From the UHGV virus genome UHGV-0129090: DNA of 34,582 nt, one strand, 5' to 3'. Made by a program: the position numbers and the translations under genes. This DNA is from a virus. Below are positions 4,396 to 8,105 of the stretch, in pieces (position 1 is the stretch's first letter; every line of letters begins with the position of its first letter). The notes beneath the pieces are model-generated. The model worked only from the letters and a program-made list of their open reading frames with translations. It did not search any database and was not told the DNA's origin.

Positions 4396-7300
4396 TTACC
4401 ATAGTCCCATACGCACACGTAACGTACCGTTAGAATCATAGATCTGAATGATGTTATTACTAATTACCATTCGACCAGTACCGCCAGTACCGTTAATGTA
4501 GATAGTACCTGCTTTGTTAATCTGCCAGCCAGTGCTATTTGCGACATAGTTATTACTCTGTATAGTATTTGCAATCTTGGCAGTAGTGATACTAGCATCA
4601 ACGATTTTAGCGGTGTTTACTGCTAGGTTAGCAATCTTTGCGTTAGTAACGGCTAGGTCGGCAATATAGGCAGTACCAATACTGGCTTGTTGAATCATCG
4701 CGGTTTTTAGATAGGTAGTAGTACCGATAACCGTAAATGGTGCGGCCCCACCAACCGTAGCTGTACTAGCTCCAGAAATAACAAACTTATCTGCGGCAAA
4801 GTAGATAGCACTAGTATTAGTAGTACCACCAGCGATTAGTTTAAAGCCAGCTACAGTACCGTTAGCATTGACGGACAATGAATACGATGCGTTTACTTCT
4901 GCTTTAGTTGCTTTAGCTGACATCTCTGTACTAACGCTTGCAAATTGCGTATCCGTACTGGCTTTTAGTTGGCTAATTGCCGTAGTTTGTGCGGTATTGT
5001 TATCTGCTACTGTTTGTGTTAGAGTTGTTATCTTGCCAGTGTTACCATTTGCCGTTGCTTCGACTACATTGATCTTCTGACTTAATGCGGTGTTGTTGTC
5101 CGTGATTTGCGTCTGTAACGTCGTCTCACTGGCTTTAATCGCTGCGTTAGTCTTTGTCTCGGATTGAGTGATCTTCGTCGCTGTATTGGCTGCTGCGTCG
5201 GCTACGGCCTTATCTAGTGTATCAGTCAAACGACCATCTAGATCTAGAATACTATTGATTTCGTCTGCATCAGCTTGTGTAAACTGATATTTGGAGTTGA
5301 TAGTAATATTCACTTCTGGGCTGTACTGTATATTGTCCATACCGAACTTATCAAATAGACCAATCTTAACAAAGTAATCACCATCAGTGATGTTTGGTAC
5401 ACTGTCAAACTCTGGCTTATTGCTGATATATGATTTAGTAGAAATTGCAGTACGCATAACAATATGTGCACCAGCATAATCTGGTTCGGTTGATTCAGTC
5501 CAGCTAACGAATAAGTTACCAAAACCGCCGCCAACCTGTACGCCCTGTACTAATCCACACTGTAAGTTTTCTGGAGTAATTTTAACTTCTGGTGAGAACG
5601 TACCCGACATCCACCCCTGAGCAATAATACCAATGGTTGGTTTACGTAGGCTGTACTTGTTCAAATCAAAGGTAAAGTTAAACTCATTACTACTTGCAAT
5701 ATATGTATCTTTCAGTGTAGCACCATCATAGATATTAATCGTATAATGTTTAAAATACTGTTGGAAAGTTTGACCATTAACCTTAATATTCTGTTGGTTA
5801 TCCCATATAATATTAAAGTCAGTCTCATTTGTAATTAATAGACCAGAAGTAGCATTTTTCAATTTAACGCCAGTTACGGCGGGTAATGTAAAGTTAAATT
5901 CCGGTTTTAGATTACCAACAATAAGTTTAGTTGATACACCACCCAATATGTTATACGCGGCTACTGAAAAGTCATAGTTTGTATCTGGATCTAGTCCGTA
6001 TAAATCAAACTCTAACTGTGTCGGTACTGTCTGCCCTGCTGCGGTCCAATTGGTTGTACCTGTTTTGCGATAGTATATATAGTAACCACGAACATTACTA
6101 GAAGGTGAAGCAGTCCACGACATGTTAACTACTGAGCCAGACACTATATCACCTTTACGGGTAATTACTAGGTTAGTTGGAGGTTGTACAATACGTGCTG
6201 ACCCACCACCGATAACACCGCCCGGACTCCATACACCCGGATCTGTACCGTCGAAAATTGCATCAGGATATTCTAGACACGTAACAGTACAGAATCCCAC
6301 GTTCTGTTGGTCTGTTGCTACTGATTTGCTCAATACCTTAAACTTACCCGCTACCATCAATTCCTTGATATTAACAGTGATACTATCCCATACTTTGAGA
6401 TCCCACGCTTCGGCACTGGTAAAGGTTACAGTACGAAGACTGAATTTAGTTTTACGTAGTTCGGCGTTTACTAGTCGAGCTACTACTTCTTCATCGTATA
6501 CGGCTTTAAAATCACGGGATAGGGTAATAACAAGACCATCACTCTTAATTGCTTCATCCGTACTAATATCTGACGGAATACGCAATACATCAGTAGTATA
6601 CATTGAATTAGTATTTACATATTGTGCATCAATTGTATTATAGTAGTCATTATTACCAGAAGTAGAAACACTTGCATCACCAATAATATTTGATTCATCA
6701 TAGGTATGTACTGATAGTGTTTTACGGTCTACGGTAATACATACTTGTCCTGCGTGCACATAAAGAATACCGCCGCAAGCCTGTAGAATTGATTCTATAT
6801 TCTCTTTATATGTTGACTGATACGACATACTAATATTCGATGTTAAATCCTGTTGGAAACACCATTGACTTACTTCGGTGAAAGTTTGCTGATTAATTAA
6901 AGCGGGTTCTAGTCCTAAACCATAGGTAGTATTAACTAGATAATCATATACCTGACTTGCAGGGCATGAAGTAGCAAAAGTAGTACCACTATTAAAATCA
7001 TAGATTTCTTGTCCTTTCATTTCTACGGTCATATTGAAGTTATCATTCGTTAGGATACCATCCATTGTGGAATCTTCGGTTTTATAGATTACCGATGAAA
7101 TAGATACTACACCTTTCCCTAAAAATTTATCAGTCCACTTTGGCCCAGCATATTGTTTAGCTAATGTTTTTGTGGTTGTGTAATTACCACCAAATCTAAC
7201 TTCCAATTGTAGATACGGTTGGAATTTAGACACGATACTAGCTTTCGGTACTACGCCATCTGTAGTTATCGGTACTGCTAAAATGGGTTCATCGTCCATG

Positions 7301-7698
7301 TAAATTTGTTCTATGTGTTTAGCTGTACCAGTCATTGATACTACTTGCTCACTAAAGAAATATTGTGAGCTATCATCTTTTACGTTATACCAGTTATTGA
7401 TCACGCCAGTTAGAATGAAGCTGCCGCCAGATACACCGTTTTTATGTGGTGCACTACCGCCATATATGACAGGTAAACCACTTGTAGGACTCGTCGAACG
7501 CTGTAATGCACTGGCTACATCAGAGTATCCCGTAAGTCCTCCTACCTGACCTAGCATACTGGTAGCAACTAATGATAGTGCACCTGCTGCCGCACCCCAC
7601 ATAGCCGCAACTGCTAGTGTAGCTCCCCCCGTATAAACAGCCGCGACGTCCATCACGGCGGTGATCAATGCTCCAAATATTCCACCACCACTACCCAT
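4396..7698 (-). CDS. Tail tip / host-specificity protein, lambda J-like with fibronectin type III region and an N-terminal domain resembling the C-terminal half of lambda gpI
   Basis: 1100 aa; N-terminal Gly/Ala-rich hydrophobic segment ([20 protein letters not shown]...GLPVIYGG) resembles lambda gpI; FN3-like [18 protein letters not shown]...YDFSVAAYN; C-terminal coiled region and Gly/Thr-rich tip. Confidence 0.7.
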
Positions 7699-8105
7699 TA
7701 TTTGTTACTCCTATAGTAAGTTCCATTTTGTTTTTTATTGATTAGTACGAAAGCGTCATGATCATCATTAACACCCAATAGGCGACCAGATACTACTACT
7801 GCCATTAGTAAGGGGTTATCTGGATCTAGCCAAATATCACCATCAATTGGGATTTCAACCTGATTACATTCCTGAATGATGATATCTTGGGTACTGTTAA
7901 ATCCTAGTTCATGTAGTTGTGCTACTCCCTCTTTTAAAGATGAATATTGTGCTACTTCTGACCAGTTAGTACCTTTAATAGTATCAACTACTCGCAAGGC
8001 AACAATATTACAATCATTAGTACCGAAGGAATAAGGGTTAGCTAGTGCATCTTCAATATGTTTCATTATTTCATTATGTAAATTTGCCATTAGTTCATCT
8101 TCCAT
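7698..8105 (-). CDS. Minor tail protein, lambda gpK-like NlpC/P60-type domain candidate
   Basis: FGTNDCN motif resembles the catalytic-Cys motif GVTDC of lambda gpK; position immediately upstream of the I-J-like gene. Confidence 0.4.

Follow-up and report, generated by a model that had tools for sequence, protein, structure and literature searches.

A lambda-like tail tip with a probable counterpart of gpI's C-terminal half opening a J-like protein and a DUF6950 gene directly upstream

Can the part of lambda tail assembly protein I that resides in the tail tip be made as the opening of the central tip protein itself, rather than as a separate protein? The question is raised by a stretch of viral DNA of 34,582 nucleotides (one strand of UHGV virus genome UHGV-0129090; hereafter the window), in which a J-like central tail-tip protein of 1100 amino acids (aa; 4396-7698, minus strand) consists of a segment like the C-terminal half of gpI, hub domains, FN3 domains, a coiled coil and a tip-fibre C-terminus, and is preceded by a gene for a 135-aa protein of the Pfam family DUF6950 (7698-8105, minus strand). 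A preliminary description of the locus placed both open reading frames (ORFs) correctly, and all the motifs that it quoted are found: a Gly/Ala-rich hydrophobic string of 20 letters at residues 24-43 and GLPVIYGG at residues 74-81 of the 1100-aa protein, and GTNDC at residues 28-32 of the 135-aa protein. We argue, with a probability of roughly 0.7, that the structural half of gpI here forms the opening part of the J-like protein instead of a protein of its own. The arrangement is genuine and conserved, and it varies a tail-tip design that was already known; it is neither a new kind of system nor a new mechanism.

Tail assembly protein I (TAPI; gpI in lambda) comprises a ubiquitin-like domain, a Gly-rich linker and a C-terminal part, TAPI-C, and the JAB domain of TAPK is predicted to cleave after the C-terminal glycine of the ubiquitin-like domain (PMC1779556). 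Starting at residue 101, gpI builds two helices (H1, H2), a plug, and strands running between the gpJ hub domains (PMC11101478, PMC10721106), which it β-augments (PMC10721106). In the lambda tip gpI supports the C-terminus of the tape measure protein; binding to LamB opens the hub, whereupon H1 and H2 probably pass into the outer membrane (PMC11101478, PMC10721106, PMC12617516).

A counterpart of this structural half appears at the very start of the J-like protein (residues 1 to ~108; 7375-7698, minus strand). It opens with two Gly/Ala-rich hydrophobic helices (residues 5-52; 7543-7686, minus strand), matching H1/H2 of gpI and presumably serving as channel plug and outer-membrane insertion element, and proceeds to the motif LPVIYG (residues 75-80; 7459-7476, minus strand), which corresponds to LPVLYG of gpI and would form a β-strand augmenting the hub-domain sheets. 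The first 55 residues include 13 Ala and 12 Gly, and the two hydrophobic blocks (Kyte-Doolittle window centres 12-24 and 34-40) have matching blocks at 103-121 and 138-148 of gpI, within its Ala/Gly-rich region 97-156. Because word-indexed searches returned close relatives only (fragments of them for the N-terminal 230 aa, and sequences of at least 69% identity for lambda gpI), profiles for gpI and gpK were built from ten diverse phage loci, the gpI alignment comprising 16 sequences (lambda, the ten loci and five database sequences). Comparison of 15 aligned family N-termini with this gpI alignment by hhalign gave a score of 50.2 (probability 93.2%, E 3e-7), with residues 4-94 matched to gpI 101-205. 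Column-shuffled controls (n = 100) averaged 11.7 (standard deviation 2.1, maximum 22.2), the reversed query scored 14.8, and composition-matched decoys from a Gly/Ala-rich hydrophobic tape measure family scored 16.9 and 20.8. The hydrophobic half taken alone reached 21.7 against gpI 102-127, about the level of the best shuffle, and the LPVxYG strand half alone reached 27.2 (E 0.001) against gpI 182-205, exceeding every shuffle; the two halves map to colinear regions of gpI. M1 (in 14 homologues), P76, G80 and G98 are invariant in the family, whose distant members are more gpI-like than the window copy, as in VLPVIYGRERVGT beside VLPVLYGEMRVGS of gpI. An AlphaFold2 (AF2) model built from a 14-sequence alignment places helices at 6-19 and 27-47 and a strand at 77-79, at low predicted local distance difference test (pLDDT) values for the N-terminus. 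Judged by these alignments and their controls, the resemblance to gpI is beyond chance, although the homology is remote.

The initiator Met of the segment aligns with Gly96 of gpI, the conserved glycine that ends the ubiquitin-like domain and hence the predicted point of JAB cleavage (PMC1779556), and lies five residues ahead of residue 101, the first gpI residue resolved by cryo-electron microscopy (PMC11101478). At the other end, residues 112-155 align with gpJ 22-79 (hhalign 57.6%, E 1e-4) and residues 221-263 with gpJ 232-289. Taken together, these alignments let the polypeptide be read as gpI (96 to ~209) followed by gpJ (~22 onward), residues 1 to ~108 being colinear at the sequence level with gpI 96 to ~209 through two hydrophobic helices, a linker and the LPVxYG/G strand region; the earlier proposal that the first hundred or so residues resemble the C-terminal half of gpI thereby holds. 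The J-proper hub domains follow (residues ~112-480; 6259-7365, minus strand), and the chain as a whole has a hub-domain fold (HDII-HDIV) and then FN3 domains, as in gpJ, pb3 and the megatron proteins discussed below, with pLDDT values of 70-90 across residues 95-800, against less than 50 over residues 1-73. Its C-terminal tip domain matches PF09327 (Phage_Tail_Tip, E 1.2e-18), and PDB matches of the C-terminus are to the central straight fibre domains of J (E 4.5e-20). The ubiquitin-like domain of gpI was found neither in the J-like N-terminus (hhalign 1.4%) nor in the five small module ORFs examined with it, and the tail-tip module contains no separate I gene.

What, then, of the gene next door? 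The preliminary description took the 135-aa ORF for a shortened gpK, which stands as regards fold and the absence of a JAB domain but not as regards sequence similarity. The protein is a single domain, matched in Pfam by DUF6950 and by no JAB/MPN family; it has the papain-like NlpC/P60 fold and would be the counterpart of the C-terminal domain of gpK. Its invariant C32 stands at the start of a helix (32-44) and aligns with the Cys of gpK, and the two proteins can be aligned in register across the whole domain, G-x-N-D-C with G-x-x-D-C and DGD with GD. The hhalign comparison of DUF6950 with gpK was not significant (probability 0.7%, E 0.078), which weighs against our reading of the pair; BLASTP against lambda gpK returned nothing, as did a profile search of PDB sequences with DUF6950 and an NCBIfam scan of the 135-aa protein (lambda gpK itself matches TIGR02219, the g14-type model). 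It is through fold only that the link to gpK is supported. In close homologues both C32 and H116 are invariant, whereas among the distant DUF6950 copies linked to the J family only D31, C32, D41, G60 and G89 are, H116 having been lost. The position of the canonical catalytic His is occupied by Leu or Met in the window copy, by His in some members, and by Tyr, Phe or Gly in several relatives. H116 aligns near the third catalytic residue of gpK, and the notion that it is a relocated catalytic His was rejected as a family feature, as it is not conserved in the distant proteins. The pattern looks like that of an NlpC/P60 fold moving away from Cys-His catalysis: since an invariant Asp-Cys is kept without a conserved His, a canonical Cys-His cell-wall peptidase is the less likely identity, and a gpK-like assembly factor or an atypical enzyme the more likely one.

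An alternative is that DUF6950 is no assembly factor at all, but a peptidoglycan peptidase carried in the virion and ejected, like g14 of the gene transfer agent (GTA) RcGTA or gp15 of phage R4C. The similar gene order in those two systems, set out below, gives this idea its precedent, and we regard it as doubtful. The family has no His in common, the canonical position being Leu/Met in the window copy and H116 being lost in distant members; the g14-type model TIGR02219 matches lambda gpK and not the DUF6950 protein; and the prophage has a lysozyme gene of its own at 2387-2839.

The derivation of the N-terminal segment from gpI must also be weighed against a number of observations that tell against it. 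The Pfam gpI model PF06805 matched neither the window protein nor any of 14 family N-termini, even at E values up to 10, and no gpI model was matched in an NCBIfam scan of the N-terminus; the family-model check proposed at the outset therefore failed for gpI and gpK alike in Pfam and NCBIfam, with the profile-profile comparison to gpI alone significant, and a PHROGs scan likewise gave no gpI or gpK family for the N-terminus or for the 135-aa protein. Pairwise BLASTP gave marginal or no matches across lambda I, K and J (for gpI E 0.043, residues 5-28 with gpI 100-123), and half of the aligned segment is hydrophobic and of low complexity. The linker between the second helix and LPVxYG is ~25 residues long vs ~40 in gpI, so that nothing corresponds clearly to the plug loop of gpI (159-175). 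Over residues 1-73 the AF2 model has very low confidence (pLDDT 25-42), which leaves the fold-back geometry conjectural. Finally, the hydrophobic segment (residues 1-52) weakly matches the translocators of type III secretion. These last matches lie below the cut-offs (SseC of Pfam in 5 of 14 family members; PRK15374 of NCBIfam, E 4.6e-4) and fall in transmembrane regions; identity as a translocator was rejected, the matches being probably compositional, yet compatible with a hairpin that inserts into a membrane.

Much of this would be expected if the segment had been acquired independently of gpI, its resemblance reflecting composition and a short strand motif reached by convergence. The missing Pfam and NCBIfam matches fit such an origin, and so do the hydrophobic half's weak likeness to translocators and a profile search of 177,635 PDB sequences, in which lambda "Tail tip assembly protein I" (9e7m) was the top match of the N-terminal profile but at a non-significant E of 0.24, with RipA proteins scoring nearly as well. 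Moreover, the megatron proteins have hydrophobic N-terminal helices for which no link to gpI has been stated (PMC7296036, PMC10276861). Convergence on composition, however, does not readily give two sub-segments that align to gpI in the right order, the non-hydrophobic one above all shuffles, when composition-matched decoys reach no more than 21 vs 50; nor a segment bounded on one side by the edge of gpI's ubiquitin-like domain and on the other by the onset of homology to gpJ; nor distant members that resemble gpI as closely as the pair of sequences given above. We consider an independent origin improbable, and the predicted function is identical under either history.

A HMMER search with residues 1-230 against 1.84 billion representative proteins produced 24 matches, all at N-termini (the full-length proteins are 1000-2300 aa long), and among those representatives no free-standing protein of the size of gpI. 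The order tape measure, distal tail (~185 aa), hub (~215 aa), DUF6950 (130-150 aa) and J-like protein recurs in Escherichia phage DCP80. Of seven metagenomic loci, with J-like proteins 28-41% identical to that of the window, five show it as well; the contigs of the other two are too short, with DUF6950 followed by the J-like gene still visible. No separate gene lies between DUF6950 and J in DCP80 or the metagenomic loci. ORF19 (DUF6950) and ORF20 (J-like) of Acinetobacter phage Loki form the same pair, the N-terminus of ORF20 matching the family profile (97.7% probability, E 2e-12, residues 3-199) from its hydrophobic start through VYGKARISG. In tblastn searches of 50,697 phage records DCP80 was the sole match, both for the J-like N-terminus and for DUF6950, and a genomic scan with the single protein added three close enterobacterial relatives. 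The DCP80 record itself (PQ671644) is a curiosity: positions 2650-10624 carry a complete siphovirus-type tip module homologous to that of the window, with the DUF6950 gene (6448-6864) unannotated, although the 141-kb record is filed under Straboviridae (T4-like) and may be chimeric or misclassified.

The adjacency of the I and J genes in lambda is the sole reason to ask whether separate I-like and J-like genes were joined artificially, by a frameshift, by faulty assembly or by a wrongly called start, an idea for which nothing was found and whose chance is negligible, conservation ruling it out: the architecture is uninterrupted and Met1 invariant in 14 full-length homologues (24-63% identity over the N-terminal 125 residues), it is the same in two Escherichia coli genomes (93% DNA identity), DCP80 and Loki, and the start codon overlaps the upstream stop by one base (TAATG) behind a GGAG ribosome-binding site. 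The arrangement is a lineage trait of a family of tail-tip modules. Both features to which the preliminary description pointed, a shortened K and an I joined to J, are present; what changes is their interpretation, as they are shared family-wide and reflect no local or recent rearrangement, and related cases have been published (PMC1779556, PMC7296036).

How might such a tip work? From the solved tip structures, the J-like N-termini are expected to fold back and act as plug and membrane-insertion element. By analogy with lambda, T5 and RcGTA/R4C, the three J-like N-termini would turn back into the lumen of the trimeric tip, where their strands would augment the sheets of the hub domains and their hydrophobic helices would close the channel under the tape measure C-terminus; receptor binding would then open the hub, releasing the helices to insert into the outer membrane. 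Tethering to J would replace the delivery proposed for lambda, in which a ubiquitin-like carrier is removed by JAB cleavage: with its plug tethered to J, the module should be able to dispense with the ubiquitin-like part of gpI and with gpK's JAB peptidase, and both are absent. Extended to the family, the idea becomes more tentative, and we give it rather less than even odds. On this extension the whole DUF6950-linked family is without the ubiquitin-like domain and JAB alike, through joint loss or from the start, with the C-terminal part of gpI tethered to J exactly at the boundary between the ubiquitin-like domain and TAPI-C; the two missing domains would be a dedicated carrier-and-release device for a free gpI C-terminal half, in line with the 2006 prediction of Iyer and colleagues; and DUF6950, keeping its Cys and losing its His, would be a non-canonical NlpC/P60 protein of tip assembly, perhaps handling the hydrophobic N-terminal hairpin, and not a muralytic enzyme.

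Parts of this design have been met before. Fusions of TAPI to TAPJ, accompanied by NlpC proteins lacking JAB, were reported in prophages by Iyer, Burroughs and Aravind in 2006 (PMC1779556). Those fusions share with the window the joining of I to J and a neighbouring NlpC/P60 protein devoid of JAB, but they were detected through their ubiquitin-like domain, whereas the window protein has the TAPI-C part only, from the position of the terminal glycine. Relative to gpK, gpI and gpJ of lambda, the I C-terminal half is covalently part of J, gpI has lost its ubiquitin-like domain and gpK its JAB/MPN domain, the linker of the plug is reduced in length, and the canonical catalytic His is missing from the window DUF6950 protein. 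Where lambda has gpL, the hub counterpart in the window lacks the Fe-S cysteines and any detectable similarity to gpL; where lambda has the 109-aa gpM, the window has a distal tail protein of 184 aa that resembles pb9 of T5. In T5 the plug is part of pb3, inserted within HDII, and HDI belongs to the same chain (PMC10721106); in the window the plug is N-terminal, and the first hub domain is a separate protein of 216 aa.

In RcGTA and R4C the N-terminal helices of the megatron close the channel (PMC7296036, PMC10276861). These systems (g12-g15 in RcGTA) offer a precedent for an N-terminal penetration element together with a small peptidase gene upstream; the window is similar in sequence features and gene order, and a similar function may be supposed from that work (PMC7296036). 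The N-terminus of g15 may also carry a YGR-x-RVGG-like motif. No megatron was matched at the sequence level in the PDB searches, and the 135-aa protein does not match the g14-type TIGR02219; the window hub lacks the four-Cys Fe-S cluster, and the C-terminal part of the J-like protein is instead lambda/T5-like, with FN3 domains and Phage_Tail_Tip. A further likeness is to Loki (ORF19-ORF20) and DCP80, where a DUF6950 gene lies directly upstream of a J-like gene with the same hydrophobic N-terminus and a YG-x-R-x-G motif. Both records are uncharacterised, the proteins being annotated as hypothetical or tail fibre, and Loki has two extra genes, ORF17 and ORF18, between the distal tail protein and DUF6950. 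The window carries a fusion of the C-terminal half of I to J, free of the ubiquitin-like domain and paired with a DUF6950 protein, and with it belongs to an uncharacterised but recurrent family.

The setting is a prophage of ~33 kb, transcribed from the minus strand and sitting inside yegD, which is split around it into an N-terminal part (2-676, plus strand) and a C-terminal part (from ~33860 to 34532, plus strand); a truncated yegD is annotated at the same insertion site in an E. coli relative. A large serine recombinase with Resolvase, Recombinase and Zn_ribbon_recom domains is encoded at the far end (32206-33804, minus strand). The prophage DNA is rare: megablast gave no match among the phage records, and of 5,426 complete E. 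coli genomes only two matched (~93% identity), in which these genes carry the names "DUF2163", "DUF6950 family protein" and "phage tail tip fiber protein". In order of transcription, the late genes encode a lambda-type terminase and portal, the capsid, a 1233-aa S74 fibre, the tail tube and two chaperone-sized ORFs, followed by the 732-aa tape measure protein (9347-11545, minus strand; phrog_13674, E 4.8e-75), the 184-aa distal tail protein (8725-9279, minus strand; phrog_1302 'distal tail protein', E 2.8e-16, with a weak match to the B-domain of T5 pb9), the 216-aa hub protein and the 135-aa and 1100-aa ORFs. The module is the tail tip of a siphovirus-type prophage. The hub protein (8090-8740, minus strand) gives a weak DUF2163/phiJL001 gp84_N match (PF09931, E 0.0016, below the cut-off) and a firmer one to phrog_2048 'tail' (E 1e-25), and its close E. 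coli homologue is annotated DUF2163. It lacks an Fe-S cysteine cluster, having two Cys only, neither of them conserved; hhalign found no similarity to a gpL alignment that included one wrong gpK sequence, and tblastn against the same phage records found nothing.

Several neighbours deserve a mention. In the capsid ORF (620 aa; 17253-19115, minus strand) the Phage_capsid domain is restricted to residues 357-617, and the N-terminal ~350 residues may be a fused protease or scaffold region. The 1233-aa fibre protein (12810-16511, minus strand) ends in a Peptidase_S74 intramolecular chaperone domain, for which a relative bears the annotation 'pyocin knob domain-containing S74 family peptidase'. Its gene lies upstream of the tail tube gene (12293-12751), an unusual position, as fibre genes normally come after the tip genes. 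Directly behind the J-like gene are three small ORFs of 82, 98 and 215 aa (3201-4402, minus strand), in the position that lom and the side-fibre genes have in lambda; the products of 98 and 215 aa have matches in PHROGs, to families of unknown function (phrog_7961 and phrog_4524), and the set of three recurs behind the J-like gene of an E. coli relative, with the first called shorter there. Near the prophage end, an ORF of the GIY-YIG nuclease family according to the annotation of an E. coli relative (1909-2397, minus strand) adjoins the lysozyme gene mentioned above, which encodes a lysozyme-like glycoside hydrolase on the opposite (plus) strand.

For the biology of lambda-type tails, the family would serve as a natural control on how a tip is built: the C-terminal half of gpI may be the only part of the protein that the tip needs, and may be delivered simply by tethering it to J. 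The joint absence of the ubiquitin-like domain (the N-terminus of gpI) and JAB (the N-terminus of gpK) fits the paired function predicted for them in 2006. DUF6950 gains both a fold and a genomic role, as an NlpC/P60-like protein always encoded just upstream of such J proteins. Furthermore, the family would provide a link at the level of sequence between the C-terminal half of gpI and the N-terminal plug or penetration elements seen structurally in the tips of other siphophages and of GTAs.

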